Positions 15,659 to 33,270 are shown, numbered from the stretch's first letter. The stretch is 64,000 nucleotides of DNA from Candidatus Bathyarchaeota archaeon (GCA_963833575.1 CAWHXY010000007.1:448001-512000); one strand, 5' to 3'. Numbers and translations: made by a program. Notes: a model not told the origin generated them from the letters alone.

Positions 15659-16145
15659 CTCGGATTTTTTTCCTTCCTAAATAATCTTGTTACAATCGTC
15701 CAAGTTTCGTTTGGTGCAGCAATTTCCGTCGAACTTACAAAGTATTGAACTTAGTAAAGACGAAATCTTTAATTTTTTAAGCAATGAGCTCAAACCAGTT
15801 CGGGGGCAAGCTCGGTCTACCCCACTCTTAGCATGTTTTTGCCAGTAAACTAGGGATAAAATCCTCCTTTACGTTCGATAGGAGGGCGATGAGAAAGACA
15901 AATAGAGAGAGAGCGCTAAACTAAAAACGTCTCTTAGAATTAACCTATTATGATTTTAAAGTCAGTATTAAATGGAATGATATCTTAGTCGTCACGCGAT
16001 TTGCTGATTTTATCTTTTGTCCGTCCCTCGATAGAAATAATACACTTCATCAGGTGCCACCACTCAACCCAATGACATCAAGAGTTTAAATGATCTTCGA
16101 TTGCATTGTAAATAGAAGTTTATTTCAATAGTTTACATTTAGAAA

Positions 16146-16240
16146 GGGTTTGCTGAGGCTCTGGCACAGAAATATAGGACCAAAGAATGTAAAACACGAA
16201 CGTGAACATCGTGAATTTTCTCCAGAGCCTGTTCAGCCCC
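16146..16240 (-). repeat. Conserved hairpin element, copy 1 (3' of beta-propeller gene 1)
   Basis: Arms GGGTTTGCTGAGGCTCTGG (16146-16164) and CCAGAGCCTGTTCAGCCCC (16222-16240). Confidence 0.9.
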
Positions 16241-16304
16241 AATTTTTTTCTTCATTTTGTTTTAGAGGACTAAAAAAAGGGAAAGTGGTTTTTGTTGTTG
16301 GTGT

Positions 16305-18926
16305 CTATGGTCTTTTTCTGAGCATCAGTAATGCCAGTATTGCGAATCCAATTATGATGAGGACAATTATGGCTACTACTGAGGGAATGAAGTATAGGTC
16401 AGCTGTGGATGGTGCTGGGGTTGGAGCTGGCGATGCTGTTGGTGCTGCATTTGCAACGTTGAATGATGTTTCAGCGGCAGATGGATAATATGATTCGGAG
16501 CCTGCGAATTTAGCGTAGACGGTGTAGTCGCCAGATATGTTCGGAGTCCATGTGAAGGTGAACATGCCGCTGCCGTCGCTTGTGGTGGTGCCTATTTGTC
16601 TGTAGTTGCCGTTTGCGTCAAGAACGTAGATGCTGACTGGAACACCTGTCACGTTTGTTGGGCATTGCTGTTGCATGTATACGTATTCCATCCAGCCACT
16701 TTGGCTTGCGTCAGAAACAGCTGGGACACCGCTGGGGAAGTTTGCGGCTTGCGCTTGTTGTTGGGTGCCGGCAGAGATGTCGGTTACTGTACCTCGTATC
16801 ACCATTGATGAACCAAACGGTTGAGCTTCGACGGTCATAGCGCTGGGTCCTTTGCCATAGGCGTATAGTTGGTTGTCATATGCATTAAGAGCTATCATTG
16901 TGCCATCTACAATGGGAGCCGCGTTGGTAACGTCAAATCCTAGTATCTCCCAGATTAACGATCCATCAGTAATGTTTATGGCCAGTTGCTGTGCGCCGCG
17001 GAATAATGGTGGACTGTACTCATGACCTACGTTGAGGAAATAAACTCCATCAGCAATGGATCCTCCGCTAAAGACCCAGAGAGGCCACACACCGTAAGGA
17101 GTATCAGATCCCGCTTCGCCAATGAGAGTGTTAGTGTTTGTGTACCAGTTTTCTTTTCCAGTATTTACGTCCACAGACCATATGTCGCCTCCGAAGCCTA
17201 TGATGTATAGTGTTCCATTAGCAAGTTCAGTCTGGTAGCCGCCGATGCTGTCGTAAGGATCCGGCACAGGGTAATTCCCATTATCACCAGTGAGGGCTAC
17301 TGGACCCCATACCAAAGATCCAGTATTCAAACTGTAAGCTCTGATTGTTCCCAAGTCTGCATCAAGTCTAACGTAGACGCCGTATCCAACTTTGGTGATT
17401 TGGTCTCTTGCGAAGGCATTTAGCGTTCGATTAGTTATCCATAGCTGTGCACCTGTGTTTGCATTGAAACCTGCTTCGATTCCAAAGCCAGTATTGAAGG
17501 TTCCTGACACGTCCGGAGCAGGAACCGCTGTCATTAGCACTACGCCGCTGTTGACACTGTTAATGGCGAGAGTCTGTGGCAGAGGAACATTTGAAAGGCT
17601 GGTAGGTAACGGTACTGTCCAAACTATTCCACGTTTGAAGTCAATGACTTGGTTTTGTAGAGGTCTCCAATTCCAGTTTGCCACGGTAATTCCTGGCACG
17701 AATTGGCTGGTGGGGTAAAGAATTGCTTGTGTCGAGTTCCACATGTTCAGTGTTGGGGCGGTTGGAATAGTTGAGTTGACATAGTAACCTATCAAATTCC
17801 CGCTGGCATCCTCTGTAAGTGTCATTGCAGAACCGTTTACAATGCTTAGGATGAAGTTTCCCGTTTGGGCATCATACATATTCCAAACAGCGCCATTCAC
17901 ACTGGGACCAGTGCCGAGGTTAAAGGCGTTTATCAGCAGGGGGTTGCTCCATAAGTATGCAAGAGAGCCGTATTGGTTGGGGTTCACCATTTGGAGAAGT
18001 TGCCCGCATCTTAAAATGTCGGTTGTATTCTTTGTCCATAGTGTTTGTCCCGTGCGTATGTCTACTGCAACCCAGCCGCCTGGAGTAGTGTAGGAATTTG
18101 GGTATGTTACGTAATACATGACGCCGTTTATGATAATTGGCGCCCATTTTGGCTCATACTGCGATGTTGAATAATAGTTGCTTGTGTCAGTTCCGCCGAA
18201 TTCTCCGCCAACTAAACCTCCAAACGCTACCGGCTTTGTCCACAAGATGTGGGCGGCTTTTGGCGCTTGAGAGTATGGATTATAGTCTCCGGTGATGTTG
18301 TATTTTCCAGTGTTTGCAAATGATGATGCGCCGAACCCAAGCCAGTTACCCATAATAGTAGACCACAGCACGTTTCCCGATTGCACTGGACGAGTCCAGT
18401 AGCTTGTTGGAAGCGGATTTAACGGAAGAAGTGGAACTGGGTTCTGTTGCACTGTAAGATATGCTACTTCGCTAGTGGAAGCCAGAAAAGAGTCATTAAC
18501 ATATGGACTGGCTCCTCCTCCATTTTCGCCTGTTAATATTTGACTGGGAAAGTTGAACACGAAAGAGTAGTTGCCTAGTTGGCTTGGCGTGTAAAGCGTG
18601 AATGTTCCACCTGTATCGTCCGATGTGAATGGTCCTAGTGTTTCTGTGGTTCCGTCAGGATGTGTAACTGTCACCATAAAGTTGTGCCATCTGTCTCCCG
18701 TTGCTGCGCTGGCTGAGGGCGGGGGTATTTGTAGCCACATGCCTATTGTGACTTGTTGACCGAGACCTGCAGGGTTAGGTGCAACGTTAACGAAGGCTTG
18801 CGTTGGAATCTGCCATGCTGGCGTATGTGCATTAGTAGTTGGCATTAATGTCATTGAAGCTGCCATTGAAATTGTTAAGAGTAAAGCAATCATAATAGCT
18901 GCTATTTTATTTTTTATAATTGTCAT
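16305..18926 (-). CDS. PQQ-like beta-propeller repeat cell-surface protein, paralog 1
   Basis: Signal peptide, repeated [DN]xxTGxxxW propeller motifs, Ig-like terminal domains, Pro/Thr linker, TM helix + RKRP. Confidence 0.9.
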   Translation of the reverse strand: MTIIKNKIAAIMIALLLTISMAASMTLMPTTNAHTPAWQIPTQAFVNVAPNPAGLGQQVTIGMWLQIPPPSASAATGDRWHNFMVTVTHPDGTTETLGPFTSDDTGGTFTLYTPSQLGNYSFVFNFPSQILTGENGGGASPYVNDSFLASTSEVAYLTVQQNPVPLLPLNPLPTSYWTRPVQSGNVLWSTIMGNWLGFGASSFANTGKYNITGDYNPYSQAPKAAHILWTKPVAFGGLVGGEFGGTDTSNYYSTSQYEPKWAPIIINGVMYYVTYPNSYTTPGGWVAVDIRTGQTLWTKNTTDILRCGQLLQMVNPNQYGSLAYLWSNPLLINAFNLGTGPSVNGAVWNMYDAQTGNFILSIVNGSAMTLTEDASGNLIGYYVNSTIPTAPTLNMWNSTQAILYPTSQFVPGITVANWNWRPLQNQVIDFKRGIVWTVPLPTSLSNVPLPQTLAINSVNSGVVLMTAVPAPDVSGTFNTGFGIEAGFNANTGAQLWITNRTLNAFARDQITKVGYGVYVRLDADLGTIRAYSLNTGSLVWGPVALTGDNGNYPVPDPYDSIGGYQTELANGTLYIIGFGGDIWSVDVNTGKENWYTNTNTLIGEAGSDTPYGVWPLWVFSGGSIADGVYFLNVGHEYSPPLFRGAQQLAINITDGSLIWEILGFDVTNAAPIVDGTMIALNAYDNQLYAYGKGPSAMTVEAQPFGSSMVIRGTVTDISAGTQQQAQAANFPSGVPAVSDASQSGWMEYVYMQQQCPTNVTGVPVSIYVLDANGNYRQIGTTTSDGSGMFTFTWTPNISGDYTVYAKFAGSESYYPSAAETSFNVANAAPTASPAPTPAPSTADLYFIPSVVAIIVLIIIGFAILALLMLRKRP

Positions 18927-19118
18927 TTTTCTTTTCTCCTTTTCTTTCTGCTAACAATTTATGCGGGCGAAGTCAATTTAAGACCTGCGATAGAACAACA
19001 AAAATGTCTGACAAAGAAAACAAAAAGCAGCAGAATAGTCAATATTGTACGAAAAAAGACAACAAATATAAAACAGAAAAACACTTAAATGACACTTCAC
19101 TAACAAAATCACGAATGG

Positions 19119-20105
19119 TTGTTCTCAACGAAAGAAATTGATCATATTGATGCAATAATCATAAAGGAACTACTAAAAGACGGCCGAAGAAACTTCACTG
19201 AAATTGCAGAAGAATGCAACCTATCAAAAAGTATGATACAGAAACGGTACAGAGAACTAAAAAGCGCAGGCATAATTGTTGGCGCCACGGTTCAACTGGA
19301 TTACCCAAGTTTTGGCTTCAATGTAGTGGGAAACATTTTGTTCAAAGTCGAGCCTCAGCAAGCGGACCAGATCGTAGAGTACGTGAACAAAATGCCAAAC
19401 ATCCATGCCGCTTGGCGAACAGCCAGAACAAACGAAATAAATGCTGTAGCAGTAATGGAAGACCTTGAAAAGTTAGACAAAATCAAAGAAAGCATTAGAA
19501 AAATACCGCCAGCTTCGGAACTAAGAACGTATATTTGGACAGGCATAAGAAACATTAGAGAAAACTTGGCGATAACACCTCTGCAAATGCCGAACAAAAT
19601 GGACATAACAAACGAACATGTAACGAATAAGTCCAAAAGCACGGAAAGCAAAATTGACGAAACTGATAAGCGCATAATTGAGAAGCTTGCGGTTAATGGT
19701 AGAATATCTTTTAGGAAACTGGCGAAAGAACTGGCGATATCCACTGATACAGTTGCAAGAAGATATGAAAAACTGAAAAGAAATGGCATAATTAAGGTTT
19801 TAGTTCAAGTGGATACATCAAAGATTGGGTACAATGGTTACGCTACTTTCTATATTGCATTTCTACCTCAAAGCAGCTTGATTTCAATGGTAGAGAATCT
19901 TTGCAAAATCCCGGATGTAGTTTTGATTGTTCAGACCAGTGGAAGTTTTGACCTCTTGGTGGAAGCAATGATAAAAGATCTTGATCAATTATTATCGGTC
20001 CAAGATAGCATCACAAACATGCCTGGCGTCGCAAGGAGTGAAATGCATTTAAGTAGAACTAATGCCGTTTTTCCCACTCCCCGCGAGTATATATCAACAT
20101 TCTAA
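19119..20105 (+). CDS. Tandem (double) Lrp/AsnC transcriptional regulator
   Basis: Two HTH-RAM units: IDHIDAIIIKELLKDGRRNFTEIA and IDETDKRIIEKLAVNGRISFRKLA. Confidence 0.92.
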   Translation: MFSTKEIDHIDAIIIKELLKDGRRNFTEIAEECNLSKSMIQKRYRELKSAGIIVGATVQLDYPSFGFNVVGNILFKVEPQQADQIVEYVNKMPNIHAAWRTARTNEINAVAVMEDLEKLDKIKESIRKIPPASELRTYIWTGIRNIRENLAITPLQMPNKMDITNEHVTNKSKSTESKIDETDKRIIEKLAVNGRISFRKLAKELAISTDTVARRYEKLKRNGIIKVLVQVDTSKIGYNGYATFYIAFLPQSSLISMVENLCKIPDVVLIVQTSGSFDLLVEAMIKDLDQLLSVQDSITNMPGVARSEMHLSRTNAVFPTPREYISTF

Positions 20106-20612
20106 AAGAATTGTTCACGAGTTTGGATACTCTCAAACCTTTCTTACCACGAATTACATTTCTTGACATAAAGACTTTACCCAGCAGGACAATCGTTTTT
20201 TTCCACAAACATTCGTTTGAACGCTCTTTTGTTCACTTGATTCTAATCAGGACAATGCGGGGCTGACATACGTCCCTCAATCAATTCATTTTTTGTGTAA
20301 CTTCCAGTTCAATAAATAAAATTCTTATTAACTTTGTATCAATAAGTTAAATTCAACATTAATTATTATATCATACGAGTTCTGTTTTGGCAAATCATAA
20401 ATATCGCGTGCTATTTGGGTTCCAAATAGAGAATTGAAGTGAGAGCAGCCGCAGGCACAGAACGTGTCCTTAAAGACTAATCCTCTAAAACTGCTCATAA
20501 ACTAAATTCCTCTTAAAAATTCTTTGTTTGCTAAATCCTAACTCCAAAAATAGCACCCTTTCAGTCGCCAAAGCGGCTGAACTTCACTTCCAAAATGTAT
20601 TAAAGAACGCAA

Positions 20613-21038
20613 ATGGAGGTGAAAAAAGTGAACAAAAAGGCTTTGCTTGCCTCAATCTCGGTACTCTTGGCTTCAAGCTTAATTGCGGTGCCAGTTTTGG
20701 CCTTGAGTTTGCCGTCAGATTTTACGGCAGGGGGATGGGGGTATGTTAACATTCCTGGACATATTTATTATTCAGGCGAGACCATACGAAGCGTAACAAC
20801 GACTTTGGGGACACAGGTCGTGATAACTATACCTAGTTTTCTGCCGAATGAAGCATTTTGGAGTGTTAGTTCTTATATCATATATGGCGGTGTTGAAACT
20901 ATAAAGACTGGAATTGGATATTGGGGTTACACAGGCATCCATCTTAGTCCAATAACCGTCATTGTTCACCTAAACGCACCATACCTTGTTGTTGCATACG
21001 GTTCAGGCGTCTACTTCATCGGTACCTTGCAATCTTAA
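20613..21038 (+). CDS. Secreted hypothetical protein
   Basis: Signal peptide after a GGAGGTGA RBS (true start probably GTG 20628), aromatic beta-rich mature region. Confidence 0.7.
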   Translation: MEVKKVNKKALLASISVLLASSLIAVPVLALSLPSDFTAGGWGYVNIPGHIYYSGETIRSVTTTLGTQVVITIPSFLPNEAFWSVSSYIIYGGVETIKTGIGYWGYTGIHLSPITVIVHLNAPYLVVAYGSGVYFIGTLQS

Positions 21039-21381
21039 GAAAGCGCTAAAAGCATGTTTAATTCTATCTCTTTTTTAGTTTCTCTATTTAGCCTTTGAAG
21101 CTCTACACTAATCACTGCAAAGTTATAGATTAAATTACTAACAAGTAACCCTCTTTTCTCTTGTTTGCGAACGATCTAACGATCTAACTAACGAGCTAAC
21201 GAAAGAATGCGTGGGAGAGAGTGATAAGAAGAGTGAGTCAGTAGTCGTTAGTCATGGTTATTGATAGAGAGAAAGATTAAATTTTAGTGCACACACACAC
21301 TTGTTCTTCGGTTTGTGGCTTTAGGATTCTTCAGCGGTTAAACCTAAAAGAGAAGAAAATGCAGAAAAACTAAACATGAAA

Positions 21382-21621
21382 TTAGCCTAAAGAACGGGGT
21401 TGCGGTTGACCATGCGTCCAACGCCACTGCATAGTAAAGAAAAAGAACAAAAGAACAATCGAAACCACAACGAGAAATAAACCTAATACTAAAAGGGGCA
21501 ACGCAAACAATGAATCAGCAGAAAAGTAGAGTCGGGAAATTGCTAGGGACAAGATGCCTGAGATACCGAACGGAAGAGCCATTAAGCCGTAAGTTCGTGA
21601 ATTAAACCATTTTGCGGACAT
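21382..21621 (-). CDS. Small 2-TM membrane protein
   Basis: Two hydrophobic helices, GAGGGA upstream. Confidence 0.6.
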   Translation of the reverse strand: MSAKWFNSRTYGLMALPFGISGILSLAISRLYFSADSLFALPLLVLGLFLVVVSIVLLFFFFTMQWRWTHGQPQPRSLG

Positions 21622-21964
21622 TCTTATCCCTCAGTTACAGTGGGCTTTATCAGTTTAAGAGTTTTTGCTATGAAATCAACATGGACTCTGTTTTTGCACA
21701 AGTAGAATTATCTTATAATAGTGGTGCGTAAGGCGCGCGCTTGGCGATGAAAATCCCCCTGATAATATGAACTATCTCGCCCCCTACATTTGGTACAATA
21801 CTTGTATTTACAGAATAAAAAAAGAAAAGGTTTAGGAAGCCCAGATAACAAAAACTGTCAAGTTGACTTCTCAAGAATGCAAAGGTTTCCATACAAAAAA
21901 GCGAAATGCCCTTCTTAAAAAACATTATACGGTAAGCAAGTACTAGAAACTTGAAACTGTTGGG

Positions 21965-22219
21965 GTGATTTTTATAAACAGAAATCAAGAAAATATAGCA
22001 ATTGAAGATTTAGAAAATAATACTGATAAGATTTTTAGCAAAATGCCGGTTTATAGGTGTTCATGTGGAATCGAAATTTTGGTTATTCCAGATTTACATG
22101 TCATGGTAAAAGCTATAATGAAGCACTTAACGGAACATAAAAAAGTAACAGGGCAGTGCTTAACTGAGGAACTTCTGACACAGGAAATCCTAAAAATCAT
22201 AGGTGACGTCTTCGTTTGA
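21965..22219 (+). CDS. Small hypothetical protein with CxCG...HxxxH motif
   Basis: YRCSCGIEILVIPD...KHLTEH, potential zinc site. Confidence 0.6.
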   Translation: MIFINRNQENIAIEDLENNTDKIFSKMPVYRCSCGIEILVIPDLHVMVKAIMKHLTEHKKVTGQCLTEELLTQEILKIIGDVFV

Positions 22220-22256
22220 ACTCCTTTGAGTTCTTATTCTAGGACAAAAAAGAAGA

Positions 22257-22347
22257 GCGGACTTTTTTTAATCCTTGGGAGAGAAATCATGGCATAGAAT
22301 AGGAGTGAGAAGGCTTTTTCTTTTAGGTGAGGATTAACAAAGTCCGC
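22257..22347. repeat. Imperfect 18-19 bp inverted repeat
   Basis: GCGGACTTTTTTTAATCCT (22257-22275) versus AGGATTAACAAAGTCCGC (22330-22347). Confidence 0.65.
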
Positions 22348-22792
22348 CAAGATATGTTGGGTGTTTCAAAAGATAAATGGTTGTGAGTGGCTGCTTACAA
22401 CAACAAAGGAAAATAAGAATTGAGATTTATTTTTGCTTCTTATGCTCATGATGTTTCAGAAAAAAATCGCCCTTAGACTGCCCATGTGTGGTGGAAAAAC
22501 TGAATAATTAGCCAATATGAAAAAATAGAAAAATTGCTTGTAACTAACCTCTTAAGCGCGCGGGTTTAGTCATCAATTATTTCAAGCATGGGCTGACCAC
22601 AACAAGTTGGATTCTTTTGTTCATTGAAATTCTGAGATTCAGTGCAGTCGCAAGTATCATAATCAGCCTTTATCTTCTTACCGCACGTCTTGCATTGGAA
22701 TGTAGGCATAACTCATCTATTATAACTTTAGGAAACATACCAAAAAACTTTGCTATTTTTCTTAGCACGCGCTATAAATCGGGCATGTGTCG

Positions 22793-23491
22793 CTATTTGG
22801 TCGCTAAAGGGGCATGCTCTTTGTTTTTCGCCTTAATTACGAAAGCAAAGATGATTACCACACCAGTTGAGATTGCTGTCGCAATTGCAACTGAATGCTG
22901 CTGGTAGAAGGGCAACTTTGAATTATTCCCATAAGAGTTTAAAAAGTTATAGTGGATTACGCTTACATTCTCAGTAGCGCCAGTCACGGCGACCGTTCCA
23001 TCGGGCAGCAGGTTCCAGCCGTCACCTTCACTAACAACCGTGTGGTTCCCAAAAACAACAGTCCATTCAGCAGTTGAAATCGATTCTCTTTGTCCAGAGA
23101 AAAGACCAAAGTTCAAGATTTGTTCACCATGACCATCAACTTTAAATCTTAACCTTTCGCTCTGAAAGGTAGTGCCATTATTAATTAGGAAAGAGAAAAT
23201 TGTAACATTGGAGTTTTGAGTTGAAATCCTAAAATCTCTAAGCATCTGTGACCCGTTGAGTTGTAAATCAGTGAAAACCCAAGTGTTATTTTCAAAGACT
23301 GCCGTAGAATAGGAGCCATTTACTGCAAAACTAACCGCGCCATCGAGTACCGGAATATCAAATTTGTCTGCAGGACTAAAAGTCACACTTGTTTGCGCCT
23401 GCGTATTGGGAAAGACACAAAGTAATAAGAAAACAGTAATTGCGGCAACTCCACTTGTGCTCTTGATTTTGTTCACCACCAAACTCCTCAC
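22793..23491 (-). CDS. Secreted protein with C-terminal membrane anchor
   Basis: Signal peptide, many NxS/T sequons, C-terminal TM helix + basic tail. Confidence 0.8.
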   Translation of the reverse strand: MRSLVVNKIKSTSGVAAITVFLLLCVFPNTQAQTSVTFSPADKFDIPVLDGAVSFAVNGSYSTAVFENNTWVFTDLQLNGSQMLRDFRISTQNSNVTIFSFLINNGTTFQSERLRFKVDGHGEQILNFGLFSGQRESISTAEWTVVFGNHTVVSEGDGWNLLPDGTVAVTGATENVSVIHYNFLNSYGNNSKLPFYQQHSVAIATAISTGVVIIFAFVIKAKNKEHAPLATK

Positions 23492-23507
23492 TACTTACTT
23501 TGTTAAT

Positions 23508-23619
23508 TGGTTTGCTGAGGCTCTGGAAAACTTTAAAGGAGAAAAACAAGCAAATGAAAATGCTCTATCACGAAACTATGGCAGGTATCGTGAATTTTAA
23601 CCAGAGCCTTCTCAGCCCC
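23508..23619 (-). repeat. Conserved hairpin element, copy 2
   Basis: TGGTTTGCTGAGGCTCTGG (23508-23526) and CCAGAGCCTTCTCAGCCCC (23601-23619). Confidence 0.9.
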
Positions 23620-23680
23620 ACATTTTTATCCGATACTTTCAAGACTAAAAAAGGGGAAATGGATTTTTTGGTTGTTGTTT

Positions 23681-26266
23681 TTATGGCTTCTTTCTCATTA
23701 AAAGTAATCCGACTATAGCTATTGCGATGATTATGGCTATGACGCCTACTGCTAAGTACATCATTAGGTCTGTTGGTGTTGCGTAGTTTAGGGGTGCTGG
23801 TACGGGAGTTAAGGTTGCTGAGGCCGCTTGTACGGTTACGGCAGTTTCTGCTGACGAGCCAAAGTAAGAGTTAGATCCTGCAAAGGTAGCTGTTACCATG
23901 TAGATTCCGGGTACTGTAGGTGTCCAGTCCAATGCAAATTTCCCATTCATGTCGCTGACGGTTGTGCCAATGACGTAGGTGTTGTGGTTTGAGTCAAGAA
24001 CGCTTAGAGTTACCGGGACACCTGTAGCATTCATAGGTTCAGGTTGTTGGTCGTAGAGGTAATCCATCCATGCGGTCATGCTGTCGTCGGATATTGCGGG
24101 AGTGCCTGCTGCAGGGATACCTAAGCATGTGCTACCTGATGACTGGTCCGTAACAGTACCTTGAACTAGAACTGTCGCTCCTAATGTTTGAGCATCTTGA
24201 GGCGCAGAGACTGTTGTGGCAGTTTGTCCTTGACCATAAGCGTATAACACGTTGTTGTATGCGTTCGGTTTCACGAAGATGCCATCTGCGAGGAGTGCGC
24301 TAGCTCCGTTAGAGTCATCAAAGCTTGAATCGCTCCAAACTAAGGCTCCTGTAGTGGCGTTTATTGCGTATACTTGTGCGCCTATAAACATGGGTGGACT
24401 ATATGTATGTCCTCCTGCAACGAATACTTCGCCGCCGCCGACTGCCTCAACATGTACCAAAGGCCATATACCATATGGAGTATCGTATCCTGCGCTACCT
24501 GTTGAAAATTGCCAGACCTGTTTTCCTGTGGTAATATTATATGCATGTACTTGTCCACCGAAGTCAGATGCGTATAGCATACCGTAAGCAATGATCGGTT
24601 TATAGTTGACAAAGTATGCCCAAGGCGGGCTATTGTAGGGATCTGAAGTCCAGACTGATTGTCCAGTAAGCGCGTTGTAGGCACTCCAGGTTAATGATTC
24701 GTGATTGAATTCGAACCACATTCCATTTAAAATGCCATTCGTGTCAATTCTGGCCCATGCGCCTACCGTTTCGTTTATCGGACCCCATATTTGTTGTCCT
24801 GTGATCGAACTGTAACCTGCTATTATGCGCCAAGGTGGTAGCCAGCTAAGCCCTCCGTTCAAAGTGCTGTCAACTGAAGTCATGAGGATCATGTTTGAAC
24901 CGATTGCTCCAATTCCAAGAGTTGGGCTGAATGTCACGCCAGATATGTTGGTAGCTAGTGGCATTGACCACATTATTCCTTTACGAAAGTCTATTTGTGC
25001 ACCCTGCGTTGGTCTCCATTGCCAAGCTGCTGGACCATTGGTTCCGACTAGTATACATTGCGTTGAGTTCCACATGTTAATTGTAGGTGCATGATACGCA
25101 TTCGCTGTGCTTGTGTTAACATAGTAGCCAATCAAATCGCCACTGTCATCTTCCGTGAGAGTAAAAGTTGTAGCATTAACAATACTTAGTACGTAGTCTC
25201 CAGTCATTGCGTCAAACATGCCGTAGGTAGTTCCAGTGTTTGGACTAACCGTTGGCAATGTGCTCCAGAGGTATGGGATGCCGCCGTACTGGTTTGGTGT
25301 GATGTAGTCTAATAGTTGACCGCATAATAAGGGCAGAGTAGTGTTAATGAACCATAACTGTTTTCCAGTCCTAAGGTTTAAAGCCATCCAACCTGCGGGA
25401 TTAGACGAGCTTCCAGGTGTTTCTTGGTAGTAGAGTATACCGTTTATGACAATTCCGCCAAATTTCGGTTCATATTGTGAAGTTGAATAGTAGCTGCTGC
25501 CATATTCACTGCCGCCAAATTCGCCGCCAAGTAAGCCTCCAGCTGCTAGTGGTTGTGTCCATAAGATGTGAGCACTAGTTGGAGCGGTAGTATAGGGATT
25601 GTAGTTTCCGGTGTAGTTGTATTCGCCAGTAACCATAGTAAAACCAACTGCTGCAAGGCCAAGCCAATTTCCGCTAATTGTGTACCAGTTTAGGTTCTCG
25701 CCGTAGATTGGTCGTTGCCAGTAACCTGTTGGAAGCGGAGCAGTCGACTGAGAGGGTATGGGTGCCTCTTGTACAGCGAGCGTCACTGCTGAACTCGTGC
25801 TAGGTTGATAGTAATCTCCAATCAATGTCTGTATTGCTGCAGAGTAGCCAGCTGGTGGTGGATTGCTACCTGTTAACGTTTGTCCAGAAAAGCTGAACTG
25901 GAATGTATAATTGCCCAAGACGGCAGGTGTGTAAGTTGTATGTGCTCCTCCTGTGTCATCGGATGTAAACGGTCCTAGCGTTTCAGTGGTGCCATCAGGT
26001 TTGGTAACTTTTACTATGAAATTCTGCCATCTATCACCATAAATTGTAGCCGCTGTTGGAGGTGCCTTGTCAATCCAGAAGTTAACGTAAGCAGCTTGAC
26101 CTACGCCTACAGGGTTAGGCTCGACGCTAATGTACGCCCATGTTGGAATATTAAATGGAGGTGTATGCGCGTTAGCGCTTGGTATTAACATTGTTGAAGC
26201 TGACATCGAAATAGTCATCAAAATAACAATCGTAATAGCTGCAATTCTGTTTTTTAGATTTAACAT
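23681..26266 (-). CDS. PQQ-like beta-propeller repeat cell-surface protein, paralog 2
   Basis: Same architecture as paralog 1. Start ATG 26266 (MLNLKNR) after the family-type GAAAGGAAGAAAA leader, C-terminal TM + RKKP. Confidence 0.9.
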   Translation of the reverse strand: MLNLKNRIAAITIVILMTISMSASTMLIPSANAHTPPFNIPTWAYISVEPNPVGVGQAAYVNFWIDKAPPTAATIYGDRWQNFIVKVTKPDGTTETLGPFTSDDTGGAHTTYTPAVLGNYTFQFSFSGQTLTGSNPPPAGYSAAIQTLIGDYYQPSTSSAVTLAVQEAPIPSQSTAPLPTGYWQRPIYGENLNWYTISGNWLGLAAVGFTMVTGEYNYTGNYNPYTTAPTSAHILWTQPLAAGGLLGGEFGGSEYGSSYYSTSQYEPKFGGIVINGILYYQETPGSSSNPAGWMALNLRTGKQLWFINTTLPLLCGQLLDYITPNQYGGIPYLWSTLPTVSPNTGTTYGMFDAMTGDYVLSIVNATTFTLTEDDSGDLIGYYVNTSTANAYHAPTINMWNSTQCILVGTNGPAAWQWRPTQGAQIDFRKGIMWSMPLATNISGVTFSPTLGIGAIGSNMILMTSVDSTLNGGLSWLPPWRIIAGYSSITGQQIWGPINETVGAWARIDTNGILNGMWFEFNHESLTWSAYNALTGQSVWTSDPYNSPPWAYFVNYKPIIAYGMLYASDFGGQVHAYNITTGKQVWQFSTGSAGYDTPYGIWPLVHVEAVGGGEVFVAGGHTYSPPMFIGAQVYAINATTGALVWSDSSFDDSNGASALLADGIFVKPNAYNNVLYAYGQGQTATTVSAPQDAQTLGATVLVQGTVTDQSSGSTCLGIPAAGTPAISDDSMTAWMDYLYDQQPEPMNATGVPVTLSVLDSNHNTYVIGTTVSDMNGKFALDWTPTVPGIYMVTATFAGSNSYFGSSAETAVTVQAASATLTPVPAPLNYATPTDLMMYLAVGVIAIIIAIAIVGLLLMRKKP

Positions 26267-26648
26267 TTTTTTTCTTCCTTTCATTTTTGGTTGTAAGAAG
26301 CATTTGTATCTGCGTTCTTCCAACTAAACAATCATCTTGTTAGAGTAAAGCTTAAATGATTTGCTTATCTCTAAACCTAGAAAAAAACTTAAAAAAATGT
26401 CCAGAGCTAAGATAATAAGAAAAATTTTGAATTATTACAAAGCAAATCGTTTAAAAAAACGCGCAGTAAAATTTTCTTGATTATCAATCAAAGATTATTT
26501 TAAGCTCTCACTCATAGAGTTGACTGGAGATAACCCATGAAAAGGCAAATTAACCTTTTCGGGGGCAACACAATTTATCTGAAGCATCGCCCGCAGAGCT
26601 GAATATGTTGCAATAGTTTTTTTGATTTGAAAATATGGTATGAATTTT

Positions 26649-26757
26649 GGGTTTGCTGAGGCTCTGGAAAACAAGGAGAAAATAAAGCAAATGCAAATGC
26701 TCTATCTTCCAAATACTTAGCTATCTCTTGAAATTCAACCAGAGCCTGCTCAGCCCC
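26649..26757 (-). repeat. Conserved hairpin element, copy 3
   Basis: GGGTTTGCTGAGGCTCTGG (26649-26667) and CCAGAGCCTGCTCAGCCCC (26739-26757). Confidence 0.9.
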
Positions 26758-26820
26758 ATCCATACTCATTGACTTCAAAAAAATAAAAAAGGGAAATGAT
26801 TTTTGATATGCATTTTTGGT

Positions 26821-29541
26821 TTATGGGTGTTTTCTTGTGACAAGAATTGCGAGAACAGCGCCTATTACGATTATCGCGATTATGATTGCTATCCCTATGT
26901 ATTCAAGTGTGCTTTGAGTGGCTACGTTGCCAATCGCTGTTGCTGTGGGCACTTGTGTTGCTTGTGGGAGGCTTGCGTAGAAAGCTGTTGTTGCAGATGA
27001 TTCATAGTAAGATTGGGTGCCTGCGAAAGTGGCTGTAACTGTAAAGTTGCCTGGTATTGTTGGTGTCCACGTAAGACTGTAGAAACCGCTTGGAGTTGTC
27101 GTTGCAGTGCCGATTGGGTAGCAGTTGCCGTTAGAATCAGTGACCGCTATCGTAACTGGAACGCCGGTTATGTTTGATGGCATTACCTGCTGCTCGTAGA
27201 CTGCTTCCATGAACTGTGTCATGCTAGCGTCGGATACACATGGAAGACCGTTGGGGAAGTTCGCTGCGATTGCTTCTTGCTTTGAGCCGGCTGAGATGTC
27301 CATAGCTGTGCCAGTGATTGTTACTGGCGTGGATGTTGTAACGGCATTTTGTGGAGTTGAAACCGTTGTTGCGCTGGGTCCTTTGCCGTATGCGTAGATT
27401 TGGTTGTCGTAGGCGTTCATAACTGTGGCGATACCGAAGGCGATTGCAGGGGGGTTTGTGACATCGAAACCCAATATTTTCCACACAAGTTGTCCAGTTG
27501 TAATGTTTATAGCCAATTGTTGAGCTCCGTGAAACAGCGGTGGACTGTATTCGTGACCTTCCGGTACGTATAGGATTCCGTCGGCGACTGTACCGCAATC
27601 GAAAGTCCATAAGGGCCAAGTGCCGTAGGGTGTGTTAGTTCCTGCATCACCTTGTAGCGTGTTGGTATTTGTCTGCCAAATGATAGTTCCGTTTGCCATG
27701 TTAATAGCCCAAATATCTCCTCCGAAGCCATAAAGATACATTATGCCATTAGCAAGCACGTTTCTGAAGCCTCCTGTTGAGTCGTATGGATTACAATTGG
27801 TTAACTGCAGAGTCCATAATTGAGAGCCTGTTGTGGCACTGTAACCGATGGCTTGGTAATTATCTTGGTTGATTTCCACGTAGATTTCGGAAGAAGGTGA
27901 GGTTATGTCAACTCTGGTGCCAGGTGCTTCTGTTCGATTAACTGCCCAAAGCTGTTGACCTGTTCTGGAACTGTAGGCTGCTTCAATCTGAAAACCGGTG
28001 TTGAAAAAGTTTTCACCCGGAGTTATGCAAGTCAAAAGTACCACACCACTATTTACGCTGCCCCCGATGTCTGAACCTGTTGCTCCAAAAGACAAGCTTT
28101 GAGGCAGAGGAACGCCCGTAATGTTTGTGGCTATTGGCATTGACCATTCTAGTCCATAGCTAAAGGGTATGATAGCGCCTTGTGGCGGTCGCCATTCCCA
28201 AATGTTGGTGTTGAAGTTTGTTGCTAAGTCATAGTTTTGAACGCATAATGTTGAGTTCCATTCGTTTAATGTTTCTGTTGTAGAGTTAATGTAGTAACCG
28301 ATGAGATTCCCCTGATCATCTTCTGTAAGAGTCATTGCGGTTCCGTTGACGATACTTAGAATATAGTTTCCTGTTGATGCATCGAACATGTTGTAGGTTG
28401 TGGACGCAGTGGCGGCGTGGGTAAATTGGTCGACCATAACGGTAGGTGCAATGTTTGTGGCTGCTGCTACCATGGCAGGTGTTCCAGTACTCCAAAGGTA
28501 AGTAAGCGCTCCGAATTGGTTTGGACTCACGTAATAAAGCGTCTGTCCGCATCTTAACACTGTACAGGGTCCTGCTGATGCAACGTTTGGTTGAAGCGTG
28601 GAAGTTGAGCCTATTGGGGATGGTAGCGTAAGCGGATAATCCGTCGTCCACAGAGTCTTACCAGTGTACAAGTCAACTGCGACCCACCCTGTGGGGTTAG
28701 CGATAGTGCCTTGGTATTGAGTATAGTACATGACGCCGTTCATTATTATGGGTGCAAATTTTGGTTCGTACTGAGAGGTTGCATAATAGTTGCTTGTTCC
28801 GGTTGCTCCAAATTCTCCTCCAAGTACACCTCCAGGTGCTGCGGGTCTGGTCCACATAATGTGAGCGGTTGTGGGCGATGTAGTGTAAGGATTGTAGTTT
28901 GATGTACAGTTATAATTTCCTGTATTCGCGCTAAATATTTGTCCCAAACCAAGCCAGTTTCCTGTAAGAATAGACCATGGGTATACGTTTTCGGAGTTTA
29001 CGGGTGTTTGCCAGTAGTTGGTTGGAAGTGGATTAGTAGGCAACGAAGGTATTGGTTGCTGCTGTACAGTTAGCGTTGCACTTATGTTGCTAGGTTCAAA
29101 ATAGTCTCCGATGAATGCTTTTGTGAAGGCTGTTGTTGCTGGACTGAGATTGCTGCCTGCTAGAATTTGTCCTGGAAAAGTAAAGAAGAAGCTGTAATTT
29201 CCCAGTTGAGAAGGCGTATACGTGGTGTACGTTCCACCAGTATCGTCGGAAGTAAATGGTCCGAGTGTTTCAGTTGTGCCGTCCGGTTTTGTTACTACCA
29301 CTTTGAAGTTTTGCCATCTGTCACCATACTGCACGTTCGCTGTCGGAGGGGGTTGAGCTAGCCACATGCCAATTGTTACTGTTTGTCCGACGCCTGCAGG
29401 GTTAGGTGCAACATTAAGGTATGCTATGGTCGGCAAAGAAATGTTACCGGCTTTAGCTAAAGGAGCTGCGTGAGATGCCATCGAAAGTATGAAGAATATT
29501 ACAATAGTGATTGCTGCAATTTTATTTTTTCGTGTTTTCAT
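26821..29541 (-). CDS. PQQ-like beta-propeller repeat cell-surface protein, paralog 3
   Basis: Same architecture. Start ATG 29541 (MKTRKNK) after GGAGAAAAGAAAA, C-terminal TM + RKHP. Confidence 0.9.
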   Translation of the reverse strand: MKTRKNKIAAITIVIFFILSMASHAAPLAKAGNISLPTIAYLNVAPNPAGVGQTVTIGMWLAQPPPTANVQYGDRWQNFKVVVTKPDGTTETLGPFTSDDTGGTYTTYTPSQLGNYSFFFTFPGQILAGSNLSPATTAFTKAFIGDYFEPSNISATLTVQQQPIPSLPTNPLPTNYWQTPVNSENVYPWSILTGNWLGLGQIFSANTGNYNCTSNYNPYTTSPTTAHIMWTRPAAPGGVLGGEFGATGTSNYYATSQYEPKFAPIIMNGVMYYTQYQGTIANPTGWVAVDLYTGKTLWTTDYPLTLPSPIGSTSTLQPNVASAGPCTVLRCGQTLYYVSPNQFGALTYLWSTGTPAMVAAATNIAPTVMVDQFTHAATASTTYNMFDASTGNYILSIVNGTAMTLTEDDQGNLIGYYINSTTETLNEWNSTLCVQNYDLATNFNTNIWEWRPPQGAIIPFSYGLEWSMPIATNITGVPLPQSLSFGATGSDIGGSVNSGVVLLTCITPGENFFNTGFQIEAAYSSRTGQQLWAVNRTEAPGTRVDITSPSSEIYVEINQDNYQAIGYSATTGSQLWTLQLTNCNPYDSTGGFRNVLANGIMYLYGFGGDIWAINMANGTIIWQTNTNTLQGDAGTNTPYGTWPLWTFDCGTVADGILYVPEGHEYSPPLFHGAQQLAINITTGQLVWKILGFDVTNPPAIAFGIATVMNAYDNQIYAYGKGPSATTVSTPQNAVTTSTPVTITGTAMDISAGSKQEAIAANFPNGLPCVSDASMTQFMEAVYEQQVMPSNITGVPVTIAVTDSNGNCYPIGTATTTPSGFYSLTWTPTIPGNFTVTATFAGTQSYYESSATTAFYASLPQATQVPTATAIGNVATQSTLEYIGIAIIIAIIVIGAVLAILVTRKHP

Positions 29542-29753
29542 TTTTCTTTTCTCCATAATCCACAATATTTTCAATTTCTTTATAATACTTTTCAAAAGTG
29601 CAGAAAATAGTGAACATAACCGTTAAATTTGTGGATTTCAAACGACTATTTCACACATTCGCGCGCGCTAGATGTAGTCAATTCCCGAAAAATCCATGCT
29701 GGTTACTTACTAATTTTTTAGTACCGTCATGTAACTGATTTTGATGATAAGTA

Positions 29754-32700
29754 ATGGAAAAGCAGTCGGATTATCGCCAGCTTTACAATTCAATGCTTGA
29801 AGCCTTTGATGCCGTTAATCTGAACTATTTTGTCGTTGAAGTAAAATGTGACAAGAATGGTAAGCCTATAGATGTTCTTTACGTTGATGTTAGTCCAGCT
29901 ACAGAACGGTTGATAGGGAAAAGTAAGAAGGAGATTTTAGGAAAAACAAGGACTGAACTTATTGAAAAAGTAAATGATGAATTTCCAGAAAAATTCTTTA
30001 AAGTTATCCAAACAGGCAAGCCTGTTCATTTTCAAAGTTACGGTGCGGCAACTAAAAAGTATTATGATGTTTACGCTTGGAAGGTTACAAACCAAGAAGT
30101 AGCTGCTATAGTAACCGATGTAACTGAACGCAAAAATGCTGAAGAAGTACTTAAAGAAAGTGAAGAGCGCTTTTCCAAAGCATTCCATAAAAACCAACAA
30201 GCGATGGCAATCTCTGAATTAGATGGCAAAATAATTGAAATTAATGATAAATTCGCGCAACTATTTGACGTTGGCCGCCAGGAATTAGTTGGGCATTATA
30301 TGTCTGGTTTTGTCAAGTACGGTGACATATCCAAAAGGGAAAAGACGTTAAAGCTACTTAATGAGGGAAAAGAAGTTGAAGATGAGCAATCATACGTGCT
30401 TCAAACAGGCAGAAAGATAGATACAATATATTTCGTCCAAGTAATCAACGTGAATGGTAAAAAGCGTCTTTTTGGCATGTGGCAAAACATAACTGAACGC
30501 AAAAAAGCAGAACAAGCCCTTAAAGAAAGTGAGGAACGATTCCGAATTGCCCTCAAGAACTCGTCCGTTTCAGTTGCAGCTCAAGATTGTAACTTAAAAT
30601 ATGTTTGGGCATTTAACCAGAGAACTGCGCTCCCTGAACAAATAATTGGTAAATTGGATAGTGAAATATTTACTGCTGAAGAAGCGCTGCATCTTGATAA
30701 AGTCAAATGTCGGGTAATTAAAGAAAACATCGAAGTGAGAGAACAGTCTTGGTACAATAGACCAGATGGAAGAATCTTTTTAGATGTTACTTGGACACCT
30801 CTTCATGATTATAAAGGCAAAGTCATTGGAGTTGCAAGTGCAACGGTTGACTTGACTAGTTCGAAACTTTCTGAATTAGCGTTGAAAGAAAGCGAGAGCC
30901 GTTTTCGCTCCGTGTTGGACAATGCCCAAGACGTTATTTATAGGTTTAACCTTCAGACCGGGAAATATGAGTACACAAGCCCCTCAGTTAGAAAAATGGG
31001 GTTTGAACCCGAAGAATTGGTTGCCTTAAGCAGTAAAGAGGTATTTTCCCGCATACATCCAGAAGATGTAAATTTGTTTCTGAAAGGGCTAAACGACGCC
31101 AACATGAATGGCAAGAGCACGGTTGAGTATCGCTGGATGGATAAAGGAGGCCGATATAGATGGTGGTCTGTGCAGCTTATTATCGTTAAAGATGATAAAG
31201 GACGACCTCTTTATCGTGATGGCTTTGCCAGAGATATTACGGAGCGTAAAGAAAGGCAGGAGAAACTGGAAGACCAAGCCTCTCTTATTGACCTCAGCCC
31301 AGATGCTATACTTATTAAGAATATGGATGATACCATAATCTTTTGGAGTAAAGGCGCTGAAGAACTCTATGGTTGGACGAAAGAGGAGGCTATAGGGCAG
31401 AAAAGCCGTGTTCTTTTCAAGACTAGGTTCCCTGAACCCTATGTGGAAATATTGGCTGCGTTGCATTCTAAGGGGACCTGGACGGGAGAAAAGACACATA
31501 CCACAAAGAGTGGTAAACAAATTGTTGTCAACAGTCGGTGGCTTGCTAAACGAAATGAAAAGAGGCAACTGATGGAAATATTTGAAACTAACGAAGATAT
31601 TAGTGACCGCAAGATAGCAGAAAAAGAATTAAAGATAACTCGTGATCGGTTCTATGATAGTCTTTCTAAAATGCATGGTGCAATTCTGCTTGTTTCTACT
31701 GAAAATAGGGTTGAGTTTGCTAACCAAGCTTTCACTGAAATTTTTGATTTAAGTGAGACCCCATCGCAACTCCAAGGGCTTACTGCTGAAGAAATAATCG
31801 AGAAAATGAAGGATGGCTATGTGTCACCTAGTAGGGAGGAAGCAAGGATAAAGGAAATTGTCGTTGGCGGCAAACCTGTAATAGGTGAGGAGGTTGAGAT
31901 GACTGGTGGAAGAACTTACCTGCGAGATTTTATACCCTTAAATAAACAAGGAAGAACTGTCAGCCGTTTGTGGCACCATCTTGACATAACTAAGCAGAAA
32001 ATGGCGGAAAAATCACTGAAAGATCGAACTGAGCAGTTGGAGCAAACGCAAAAGAAGCTTGAAGAAAATGCTTGCTCACTCGAAGAGTACGCAAATCAAA
32101 TGGAAGAACTAGCTAAGCAAAGACTAAGTCAATTAAAAGATGCTGAACGATTGGCAGCTATTGGTGCCACAGCAGGTATGGTTGGCCATGATATTCGAAA
32201 TCCTCTACAGGCGATCATTGGCGATTTATATTTGGCAAAAATAGATTTGGCTGAGGGGCCAGACTGCGAAGGGAAAAACAAGGCTTTGGAGTCAATTGAG
32301 GAGATAGAAAAAAATGTCGACTACATAAACAAGATTGTAGCTGACCTTCAAGATTATGCTCGGCCTCTTAATCCGCAATTGCAAGAAACAAGCGTGAAAT
32401 CGGTGTTTGATGAAATATTGGCTAAGAATGGGGTTCCCAAAAACATTAAGGTAACTGTTGAAGTAGAAGATTTATCAGACAAGGTTATTGTTGATCCTGC
32501 ATACCTTAAGCGTATAGCAGCAAACTTAACTTTGAATGCAGTTCAAGCTATGCCTGAGGGTGGTAAACTAAATATTAGAGCCTTTCTCGACAAACAGACT
32601 GACGACGTTTTGATAACAGTTAAAGATACAGGGGTTGGAATTCCCGAAGATGTCAAGCCCAAACTGTTTACTCCTATGATAACGACGAAATCTAAAGGTC

Positions 32701-32822
32701 AAGGATTCGGGTTAGCTGTGATCAAACGTATGACTGAAGCGTTAGGCGGCACGGTAACTTTCGAGAGCAAAGAAGGTGAAGGAACAACCTTCATCATACG
32801 TTTACCTCCGCAAAAAAAATGA
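29754..32822 (+). CDS. Cytoplasmic multi-PAS sensor histidine kinase
   Basis: Several PAS/PAC units ending DITERK-like, H-box GHDIRNPL, NAVQAM, DTGVGI, GQGFGL. No TM segment. Confidence 0.95.
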   Translation: MEKQSDYRQLYNSMLEAFDAVNLNYFVVEVKCDKNGKPIDVLYVDVSPATERLIGKSKKEILGKTRTELIEKVNDEFPEKFFKVIQTGKPVHFQSYGAATKKYYDVYAWKVTNQEVAAIVTDVTERKNAEEVLKESEERFSKAFHKNQQAMAISELDGKIIEINDKFAQLFDVGRQELVGHYMSGFVKYGDISKREKTLKLLNEGKEVEDEQSYVLQTGRKIDTIYFVQVINVNGKKRLFGMWQNITERKKAEQALKESEERFRIALKNSSVSVAAQDCNLKYVWAFNQRTALPEQIIGKLDSEIFTAEEALHLDKVKCRVIKENIEVREQSWYNRPDGRIFLDVTWTPLHDYKGKVIGVASATVDLTSSKLSELALKESESRFRSVLDNAQDVIYRFNLQTGKYEYTSPSVRKMGFEPEELVALSSKEVFSRIHPEDVNLFLKGLNDANMNGKSTVEYRWMDKGGRYRWWSVQLIIVKDDKGRPLYRDGFARDITERKERQEKLEDQASLIDLSPDAILIKNMDDTIIFWSKGAEELYGWTKEEAIGQKSRVLFKTRFPEPYVEILAALHSKGTWTGEKTHTTKSGKQIVVNSRWLAKRNEKRQLMEIFETNEDISDRKIAEKELKITRDRFYDSLSKMHGAILLVSTENRVEFANQAFTEIFDLSETPSQLQGLTAEEIIEKMKDGYVSPSREEARIKEIVVGGKPVIGEEVEMTGGRTYLRDFIPLNKQGRTVSRLWHHLDITKQKMAEKSLKDRTEQLEQTQKKLEENACSLEEYANQMEELAKQRLSQLKDAERLAAIGATAGMVGHDIRNPLQAIIGDLYLAKIDLAEGPDCEGKNKALESIEEIEKNVDYINKIVADLQDYARPLNPQLQETSVKSVFDEILAKNGVPKNIKVTVEVEDLSDKVIVDPAYLKRIAANLTLNAVQAMPEGGKLNIRAFLDKQTDDVLITVKDTGVGIPEDVKPKLFTPMITTKSKGQGFGLAVIKRMTEALGGTVTFESKEGEGTTFIIRLPPQKK

Positions 32823-32970
32823 ACGCACATTGGTCTTCAAGAAAGCATAGTTTCTTAGATGCGAATCTACTGCTCTGAATTTGGCAGGCGTAACCAGTCT
32901 TAGCACTAACTTCTAAGAGTGAAAACTCAATAACTTTTCAATCTTTGAACAAATGAACCAAAATGAGGTT

Positions 32971-33026
32971 GAAAACGACGTGGAAAAAATTGTAATAACC
33001 TTGTCCGGGGTAAACCTAATTTAAGT
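32971..33026. repeat. About 55-bp direct repeat, copy A
   Basis: GAAAACGACGTGGAAAAAATTGTAATAACCTTGTCCGGGGTAAACCTAATTTAAGT, similar to 37479-37534. Confidence 0.8.
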
Positions 33027-33080
33027 GCAGTGGTCTCCACAGAGAAGAATATTCTGCAATAATCTTTTTGGTTTTAATTT

Positions 33081-33208
33081 GGGTTTGCTGAGGCTCTGGC
33101 TCAGAAATATAGAAAGAAATTTTCTTTTAGGAGAAAAAGAAAAAATGCTTTTGTTATCGCGATACTATGCCACGTATCGTGAATTTTAGATAAAGCCTAC
33201 TCAGCCCT
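33081..33208 (-). repeat. Conserved hairpin element, copy 4
   Basis: GGGTTTGCTGAGGCTCTGG (33081-33099) and degenerate ATAAAGCCTACTCAGCCCT (33190-33208). Internal TCGCGATAC-N8-GTATCGTGA hairpin. Confidence 0.85.
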
Positions 33209-33270
33209 ATTTTTTTCTCCATTATTTTTTAAGACTAAAAAAAGGGAATGTTGTTTTAGATTTGCTTTTT

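Follow-up and report, generated by a model that had tools for sequence, protein, structure and literature searches.

Why does the same short, hairpin-forming element stand behind one large surface-protein gene after another in an archaeal genome? The question is raised by a 64,000-nucleotide (nt) stretch of a Candidatus Bathyarchaeota genome (2.75 Mb, 41% G+C), positions 448001-512000 of contig C7, which is referred to here as the window. A first-pass annotation of this DNA had described four copies of the element, had likened their paired ends to a motif known as bulge-helix-bulge (BHB), and had proposed that they are either RNA substrates of the splicing endonuclease EndA and of RtcB, or sites of recombination at the DNA level. 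We find by covariation that the terminal pairing of the element is a BHB, and the elements are very probably processed as RNA by EndA and RtcB. Moreover, the interior is complementary to the translation start regions of the gene family behind which the elements lie, and we favour, with moderate assurance, a model in which a spliced-out circular antisense RNA holds back surface-protein translation.

All four copies are found where they had been annotated, on the minus strand (Table 1), and begin 64, 61, 63 and 62 nt past the stop codons in front of copies 1 to 4, in line with the fixed spacing reported before. Their arms, which lie 57, 74, 71 and 90 nt apart, are conserved far above the interior, as a comparison of the copies confirmed, and copy 4 indeed keeps its inner stem through a U.G pair. 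The 5' arm occurs four times in the window and the 18-nt 3' arm (CCAGAGCCTCAGCAAACC) five times, against 0.02 occurrences expected from shuffles; the four full copies are real, and a remnant that consists of the 3' arm only has to be added to them. Genome-wide, the 3' arm yielded 27 matches with at most two mismatches and its backwards control none. A covariance model (R1), built from 24 full copies on a manually set structure, likewise returned 27 copies from this genome at an E-value of 0.01 or lower. This model and its manual structure replaced an initial MAFFT/RNAalifold run that had recovered the outer stem only, because the interior was misaligned.

When R1 was run against 40 relatives, 21 of the 24 congeneric genomes gave matches, as did a single one (G040, from another family; 16 matches) of the 16 that belong to other genera of the order. 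In the source genome, 18 of the 27 copies sit 58-73 nt behind an open reading frame (ORF) of 840-1076 amino acids (aa) with a membrane-anchor tail and nine do not, while 18 of the 34 anchor-tailed ORFs of at least 800 aa carry an element; the earlier statement that it lies behind every full-length gene of this kind is thus correct for the window but does not extend to the genome. The linkage to the 3' ends of surface-protein genes recurs in the relatives, where 56 of 81 evaluable copies, drawn from the better-scoring R1 matches and not at random, lie 47-96 nt behind an anchor-tailed gene, including three of four in G040. The protein family itself is found in G040 and in each of the 24 congeneric genomes, whereas the remaining 15, representing 14 other genera, yielded no member of it. 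Among the sampled genomes, element and protein family are confined to the same two genera (g1 and g16); as only two lineages are involved, we regard this co-occurrence as suggestive and not as a statistic.

A closer inspection of the termini revises their architecture. The first-pass annotation had described an 8-base-pair (bp) inner stem, two 3-nt bulges and a central helix of 5 bp, the latter being noted as a departure from the canonical 4 bp. Two bulges of 3 nt remain, but the helices re-register to 9 and 4 bp, because the U directly after CCAGAGCC finds its partner in the conserved last base of the formerly assigned bulge. The result is a canonical hBHBh', in which, by the definition in PMC4090602, two 3-nt bulges flank a helix of 4 bp: an outer helix h (GGG:CCC), a central helix H (GCUG:CAGC), a 5' bulge A-R-N, a 3' bulge AAA and an inner helix h' of 9 bp. 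We aligned to R1 a set of 107 copies that represents 22 genomes (of the 110 eligible loci it took 100; left out are the relatives' loci L069-L072, L082, L083, L088, L089, L093 and L094 and the own-genome duplicates or remnants L012, L014, L018, L020 and L027). Among these copies the ninth inner pair is A:U in 76, G:U in 16, G:C in 11 and another combination or unpaired in four. Where the 3' base is C, which is the case in 12 copies, the base opposite in the ninth pair is G in 11; the rival partner of the 3' base (column 8) is an invariant A, which is unable to pair in 12 of the 107 copies. The 4-bp register fits 103 of the 107 copies and the 5-bp register 95, both being possible in 76; this outcome was reached against a bias in the alignment, as the 5-bp register had been the basis of R1. 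The ninth pair covaries and the 4-bp register is canonical, which removes the caveat of a 5-bp central helix.

The bulges are likewise conserved, the 5' bulge reading A-R-N in all 107 copies and the 3' bulge AAA in 104. Pairing is present in 98.4% of the cells of the central helix, in 95.7% of those of h' and in 93.4% over the whole structure, in which 20 of the 22 modelled pairs change on both sides (125 cells). The observed values of pairing and covariation were attained by none of 500 shuffles, a count that is not a probability because the copies are related, and slid controls paired in 28-51%. Thus, the covariation identifies the terminal pairing GGG/GCUG/9 bp as a BHB. The changes also tell the strand: over all stems there are 107 G:U pairs against 49 A:C combinations, of which the BHB stems contribute 62 against 32 and an interior hairpin (P2) 45 against 17. 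A position of the bulges 3' of the central helix is obtained on the minus, gene-sense strand alone, the plus strand placing them 5'. Together, the G:U excess and the bulge geometry point to an RNA of the gene-sense strand.

The element has no counterpart in Rfam: the only match above gathering score in the whole window is Archaea_SRP, none falls on the elements, and the best matches on copy 2 (E 3.4 and 4.3) are at chance level, far under the cut-offs. Two further identities were tried and rejected. Short frames on either strand encode differing peptides, lack an ATG in some copies and carry indels that are not in threes, which speaks against coding. A K-turn or C/D box reading of GCUGA...UCAGC fails by eye, the bases after the bulge being GG and CC and not GA.

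For a transfer RNA (tRNA) intron at position 37/38, the first two anticodon bases being part of the central helix (PMC4090602), a cut after the second base of each bulge follows; rings of the sizes given in Table 1 are predicted on this basis. We aligned contigs of three metatranscriptome RNA runs (X7, X10 and X20) and one DNA run (X5) to positions 16000-34000 of the window, X7 and X20 being from different studies. Two contigs of X20 run to 23609 and differ in a single letter at 23610; beyond it, the first (depth 20.2) resumes at 33085 and the second (depth 8.7) at 26653. Read on the sense strand, the junctions are ...CCAGAGCCUCAGCAA/U/AGGCUCUGG... and ...CAGCAA/C/AGGCUCUGG..., that is, a ring end joined to a ring start, and they pass from the end of copy 2 onto the 3' cleavage site of another copy. 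In X7, a 145-nt contig (contig 31) matches exactly 33085-33199, the predicted ring of copy 4, with four differences, and the match of a 128-nt contig (contig 28) begins exactly at 26653. On a 201-nt stretch, an X20 contig of 115 nt shows loose ends on both sides that start with the junction; no match to this stretch was seen in X10 and X7, which is no proof of absence. The contigs that hold a junction are of low depth (4-20) and come from RNA libraries, whereas 5-6-kb contigs of the DNA run traverse the element in linear order. The junction in its specific form has no match in the source genome, where a looser form gave four unrelated matches, and 101 genomes of the genus hold no exact match and two with one mismatch. 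Neither of these two carries an element according to the covariance model, and the one inspected looks like coding sequence. RNA contigs of relatives thus carry ring-type junctions (X20) or ends at the predicted cuts (X7).

The enzymes in question are encoded in the genome. PF01974 (EndA) matches twice above its cut-off, in frames of 184 and 185 aa that represent two paralogues, encoded in the regions C7:351219 and C6:37209. Inspection by eye shows the His motif in one of them (EHAPYMV), while the other reads DTAPYLV and is without that His, which we take to be the pattern of the two-subunit, crenarchaeal-type enzyme. RtcB is represented by one PF01139 match (E 6e-177), at C4:637563-638873. 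With a canonical BHB, its covariation, and RNA junctions and ends that fall exactly at the predicted cuts, the EndA/RtcB alternative of the first-pass annotation is supported, and we hold it to be highly likely that the elements are RNAs processed by these two enzymes.

What, then, does the excised piece contain? Its interior comprises the covarying hairpin P2 (UCACGA...UCGUGA), a variable hairpin and a conserved U-rich stretch. CTCC preceded by at least three T is present in 73 of the 107 copies, with variants in most of the others, and ends a median of 11 nt (interquartile range, IQR, 9-13) before the 3' arm; a CAT lies upstream of it in 76 copies. Read as the reverse complement, this arrangement resembles a Shine-Dalgarno (SD) sequence followed by ATG. 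The ring interior CAU...UUUUCUCCU is the mirror of AGGAGAAAA...AUG, and starts of the protein family read (U)AGGAGAAAA(R)(R)AAAAAUG(C/A)AAAU. This antisense interior was absent from the earlier annotation. We compared the reverse complements of 27 interiors by local alignment with positions -25 to +12 of gene starts, with 1596 other ORFs of at least 200 aa, their starts set by a crude rule, as controls. The median best score was 16 for 33 family genes and 8.5 for the controls (Mann-Whitney p 7e-19); a score of at least 16 was reached by 18 of 33 family genes against four of 1596 controls, and a score of at least 18 by 12 against one. Local-alignment scores were used in place of RNAduplex energies, because GC-rich chance duplexes dominate the energies of whole interiors. 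A search with a fixed 17-mer mirror returned mostly the elements themselves and just one family gene start; the spacing varies.

Complementarity also holds in the second lineage. Elements of G040 carry AUUCCUUC (...UUUUUUCAUUCCUUC), and the genes linked to them start with GAAGGAAU...AUG, the starts of the three linked genes examined being GAAGGAAUAAAAAAUG, GAGGAAUGAACAUG and GGUGAAAAUACAAAUG. Two of these three genes are matched better by the elements of G040 than by those of the source genome, whose own genes score a median of 16 with their own elements and 11.5 with those of G040. In the predicted folds of 24 rings, the motif has a mean unpaired probability of 0.60, compared to 0.44 for the whole ring. 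The complementarity to start sites is thus a feature of the sequences, while an effect on translation would follow from it only by way of the model set out below.

How the element might be transcribed is suggested by the oligo-T tract that lies between each gene and its element and ends about 26 nt upstream of each window copy (median 26 nt, IQR 22-29, in 85 of 105 copies). Since element-free family genes of the same genome also carry such a tract, it is likely the terminator of the upstream gene, and the element indeed lies beyond this putative terminator, as noted before. The distance from tract to element about equals the spacing from TATA box to transcription start in archaea. At such a spacing, an own promoter that overlaps the terminator is possible, and the tract could double as a TATA-like box for the element besides terminating the gene; upstream of one copy without a gene, TATATATA stands at a distance of 25 nt. 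The 5' arm is directly preceded by a leader that itself resembles a start site (..GCAATGGAGAAAAAAAT; for example 33209-33236, minus strand). In 34 of 105 copies, the 30 nt ahead of the element include GGAG, most often at 10-13 nt from the arm, and the leader is conserved across species. It is complementary to the ring's own UUUUCUCC, and cutting leaves it with the 5' exon; it may be a remnant of a gene start or may serve in the precursor to cover the antisense stretch. A within-genome comparison gave no clean empty site, element-free genes keeping the T tract and one of them part of the leader, and it leaves the mobility of the element undecided.

Based on these observations, we propose the following sequence of events. 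A gene-sense transcript of the element would arise from transcription that reads through the T tract or from the overlapping promoter of its own. Its termini would then pair as a BHB, GGG/GCUG/[A-R-N]/9 bp ... 9 bp/CAGC/[AAA]/CCC, and EndA would cut after the second base of each bulge, as the junction positions suggest. RtcB would close the ends into a ring of 82-115 nt, for which the junction contigs in RNA runs of close relatives speak. The ring interior, predicted to be mostly unpaired, could then pair in trans with the start regions of sister genes, so that ribosome-binding site and start codon would be covered and translation held back. We consider this full model, with a spliced-out circular antisense RNA as its product, rather probable.

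A number of observations weigh against this model. With regard to transcription, the oligo-T tract intervenes between gene and element, and 50 of the 107 copies contain an internal run of at least five T on the sense strand that could stop archaeal transcription. An X7 contig on gene 2 stops at 23654, at the T tract, and one on gene 3 at 26813, just past the stop codon; none of the contigs shown bridges a gene and its element, although contig ends are weak evidence. With regard to processing, the outer helix h of just 3 bp pairs in 89.1% of its cells, its outermost pair being unpaired in 25 of 107 copies. The junction appears in only two of the three RNA runs aligned, X10 showing none, and we infer that the further 30 letters of contig 31 of X7 are the k-1 overlap of a circular path that wraps around. 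The RNA evidence consists of assembled contigs of relatives that are 85-99% alike and not of raw reads from this strain, the contigs carry information neither on strand nor on level, and the appearance of ligation, but not that of cleavage, could also come from template switching where cut linear pieces end. With regard to function, three genomes of the genus that hold the protein family gave no element match with R1, and 16 of the 34 family ORFs are without an element. There is no preference for pairing in cis, the gene upstream of a copy ranking a median 19th of 33 (n=17), and the match is equally good for genes that carry an element and for those that lack one (p 0.32). Duplex energies separate family and control genes modestly, with eight of 33 family genes below the first percentile of the controls, and the anti-SD is sequestered in three of the 24 predicted rings. 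Finally, the complementarity could be the relic of an inverted copy of a gene 5' end.

Such a relic, derived from a family gene, would also explain the start-site likeness if the elements were selfish repeats similar to BHB introns, cut by EndA, spread by duplication of host genes or by reverse splicing, and without a regulatory job. Repeats of this kind would account for the many copies with sharp ends and with arms better kept than the interior, for the nine of 27 copies that are not behind a family gene, and for a pairing that prefers neither cis partners nor either class of genes. The like flanks of copies 3 and 4 and of the remnant fit as well, as they point to segmental duplication. However, no other part of the interior is kept as well across species as the UUUUCUCC stretch, whose distance of 9-13 nt from the 3' arm is fixed and which in G040 has changed together with the start sites of that lineage, the linkage to genes at 47-96 nt is kept across two genera, and target-site duplications are lacking. 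We regard a merely selfish repeat as unlikely. Another reading is a module acting in cis, in which cleavage by EndA of read-through messenger RNA (mRNA) defines or trims the 3' end and the ring is a by-product, or in which the 3' element pairs with the 5' start region of the same mRNA. The fixed position of 18 of 27 copies, which stand 58-73 nt past the stop codon, its conservation in relatives, and the start-site-like leader with GGAG in 34 of 105 copies would suit such a role. It is nevertheless quite unlikely: element-free genes keep the oligo-T tract, so that the tract and not the element looks like the normal 3' end, nine copies have no gene, the own gene is not the best match of a copy, and the missing bridging contigs, with the X7 stops at 23654 and 26813, add weak evidence in the same direction.

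At the level of DNA, the element might be a miniature inverted-repeat transposable element (MITE) or an attC-like recombination site of folded single-stranded DNA, as had been considered in the first pass. It does possess terminal inverted repeats and many dispersed copies, and covariation of inverted repeats can arise in DNA too. Yet the flanking direct repeats of the 107 copies are no longer than with shuffled partners, which leaves a plain MITE without the expected target-site duplications. The excess of G:U over A:C (107 to 49) has a meaning only for RNA of this strand, the asymmetric bulges are kept in both length and sequence, and the joined form occurs in RNA runs and neither in the DNA contigs nor in the 101 genus genomes. 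The G:U excess and the RNA-only junction likewise leave the attC-like cassette unsupported, although no search was aimed at recombinase or integrase genes near the copies and strains were not compared for breakpoints, and we consider an element of DNA highly improbable. Our preferred explanation thus remains the circular antisense RNA.

Trans-acting antisense small RNAs (sRNAs) of bacteria and methanogens, and sRNAs derived from 3' untranslated regions (UTRs), pair over the SD sequence and start codon of their targets and sit behind coding genes, and thus share the proposed action and the location of the element. They are linear, being made by transcription termination or RNase cleavage, and we know of none that is circular or made by tRNA-splicing enzymes. 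A full-text search of the literature, in which subscription journals are mostly uncovered, found no multi-copy, BHB-framed antisense or circular RNA behind surface-protein genes. The known BHB substrates (PMC7714728, PMC12558985) include tRNA introns, processing stems of ribosomal RNA (rRNA), the intron of cbf5 mRNA and the 5'-UTR intron of HVO_1309. With pre-tRNA introns and pre-rRNA stems the element shares the motif (PMC4090602), the cut after the second bulge base and the ring product (PMC7714728, PMC12558985). It differs from them in standing alone, with a length of about 100 nt and 27 copies behind protein genes, and in that the excised piece, and not the exons, bears the conserved and apparently functional sequence. 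A BHB is tied to transcripts of protein genes also in the HVO_1309 intron of Haloferax volcanii, which EndA cuts in vitro and which was detected in circular form (PMC7714728), and in the crenarchaeal cbf5 intron. Both are single-copy introns in a 5' UTR or coding region whose removal matures that mRNA; by contrast, the element recurs across a gene family, to whose start sites it is antisense, and lies past the terminator tract. A functional small RNA ring released by BHB cleavage is known from the tRNA-Trp intron of Haloferax, Halobacterium and Pyrococcus (PMC12558985). It is a C/D box methylation guide for rRNA and tRNA inside a tRNA gene, whereas no C/D boxes are seen by eye in the element. 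The permuted signal recognition particle (SRP) RNA of Thermoproteus is likewise neither tRNA nor rRNA and needs EndA-type processing and circularisation (PMC4731332), but it is a single housekeeping RNA whose permuted order is repaired; the element is unpermuted and has many copies.

The features of the window are collected in Table 1, where anti-SD and anti-TIR denote stretches complementary to the SD sequence and to the translation initiation region. The four linked ORFs span 873-998 aa, and each combines a PQQ_2 beta-propeller, an Ig-like domain and a C-terminal membrane anchor ending in RK(R/K/H)P. Contigs 90-99% alike to genes 2-4 occur in RNA libraries, those on gene 2 in X7, X10 and X20. 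Peat- and permafrost-labelled RNA libraries hold contigs of up to 2.7 kb on the propeller genes (23681-29595 and 33271-34000). The regulator and kinase genes at 19005-22600 and 29823-32800 have almost no RNA contig cover, depth being unable to rank expression. The Lrp/AsnC-type regulator and the multi-PAS kinase, which lies between surface-protein genes 3 and 4 on the opposite strand, are possible candidate regulators of the gene cluster. From its sequence, the truncated gene together with the remnant looks like a decayed gene-plus-element module. Among the window copies, only copy 2 has a downstream ORF of the kind listed as a neighbour; excision of a ring from this copy would shorten the leader upstream of that ORF. 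Elsewhere, elements also occur in tandem: two follow one gene in the source genome (C4:949048-949163 and C4:949346-949446, plus strand), three lie inside 900 nt at locus L037 in the relative G013, and at tandem loci the distal copies are the more divergent ones.

Table 1 Elements, linked surface-protein genes and neighbouring features in the window.
Feature	Coordinates	Strand	Details
Copy 1	16146-16240	-	95 nt; predicted ring 16150-16231, 82 nt; R1 match E 3e-15; arms GGG/GCUG/AAC/AGGCUCUGG ... CCAGAGCCU/CAGC/AAA/CCC; anti-SD degenerate, UUUGGUCCU, 16176-16184
Copy 2	23508-23619	-	112 nt; predicted ring 23512-23610, 99 nt; R1 match E 6e-26; anti-start/anti-SD stretch CAU...UUUUUCUCCU, 23537-23562
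Copy 3	26649-26757	-	109 nt; predicted ring 26653-26748, 96 nt; R1 match; anti-TIR stretch 26674-26699, sequestered within a long hairpin of the predicted fold
Copy 4	33081-33208	-	128 nt; predicted ring 33085-33199, 115 nt; R1 match; anti-TIR stretch 33129-33147
Remnant	10491-10508	-	3' arm only (CCAGAGCCGCAGCAAACC); fifth window match of the 3' arm; 146 nt behind the truncated family gene; downstream flank (CCCAAAATTCAAATCAAAAAGACTATTG...) resembles flanks of copies 3 and 4
Truncated family gene	10654-12300	-	548-aa ORF; sole domain MG2-like; without membrane anchor
Surface-protein gene 1	16305-18926	-	anchor ending ...LRKRP at the stop; start region AAGGAGAAAAGAAAAAUG, around 18915-18951
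Surface-protein gene 2	23681-26323	-	likely start ATG at 26266; start region 26255-26291
Surface-protein gene 3	26821-29595	-	likely start ATG at 29541, preceded by AUGGAGAAAAGAAAAAUG
Surface-protein gene 4	33271-36267	-	likely start ATG at 36246, preceded by AAAGGAAGAAAAAGAAAAAUG
Oligo-T tract (example)	23647-23652	-	TTTCCCCTTTTTT; between stop codon and element
Remaining oligo-T tracts	16272-16278, 26777-26790, 33237-33243	-	
ORF next to copy 2	22793-23491	-	232 aa; no Pfam match; GTG start 17 nt past the end of copy 2, preceded by GTGAGGAG
Lrp/AsnC-type regulator	19119-20105		double HTH
Multi-PAS histidine kinase	29754-32822	+	1022 aa
Archaea_SRP RNA	1530-1844	+	full-length; 151.6 bits; marks the window as archaeal

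If the model is correct, the job of the tRNA-splicing enzymes would be widened to the making of regulatory RNAs that are multi-copy, genus-wide and framed by a stand-alone BHB, which would be especially notable because the excised ring mirrors the translation start sites of one gene family. It would also be the first candidate for a circular antisense regulator in prokaryotes. That EndA and RtcB serve as dedicated makers of circular trans-acting antisense RNAs, each encoded directly behind a member of a family of about 30 surface-protein genes and masking the ribosome-binding sites of its sisters, and in this way gate the choice of surface proteins, is a more tentative proposal, which we are inclined to doubt at present; if true, it would amount to a prokaryotic regulatory system based on circular RNA and to a form of surface variation control. 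The element furthermore provides a natural, compact scaffold for the production of RNA rings. Its hosts are abundant, uncultivated archaea of peat and sediment.

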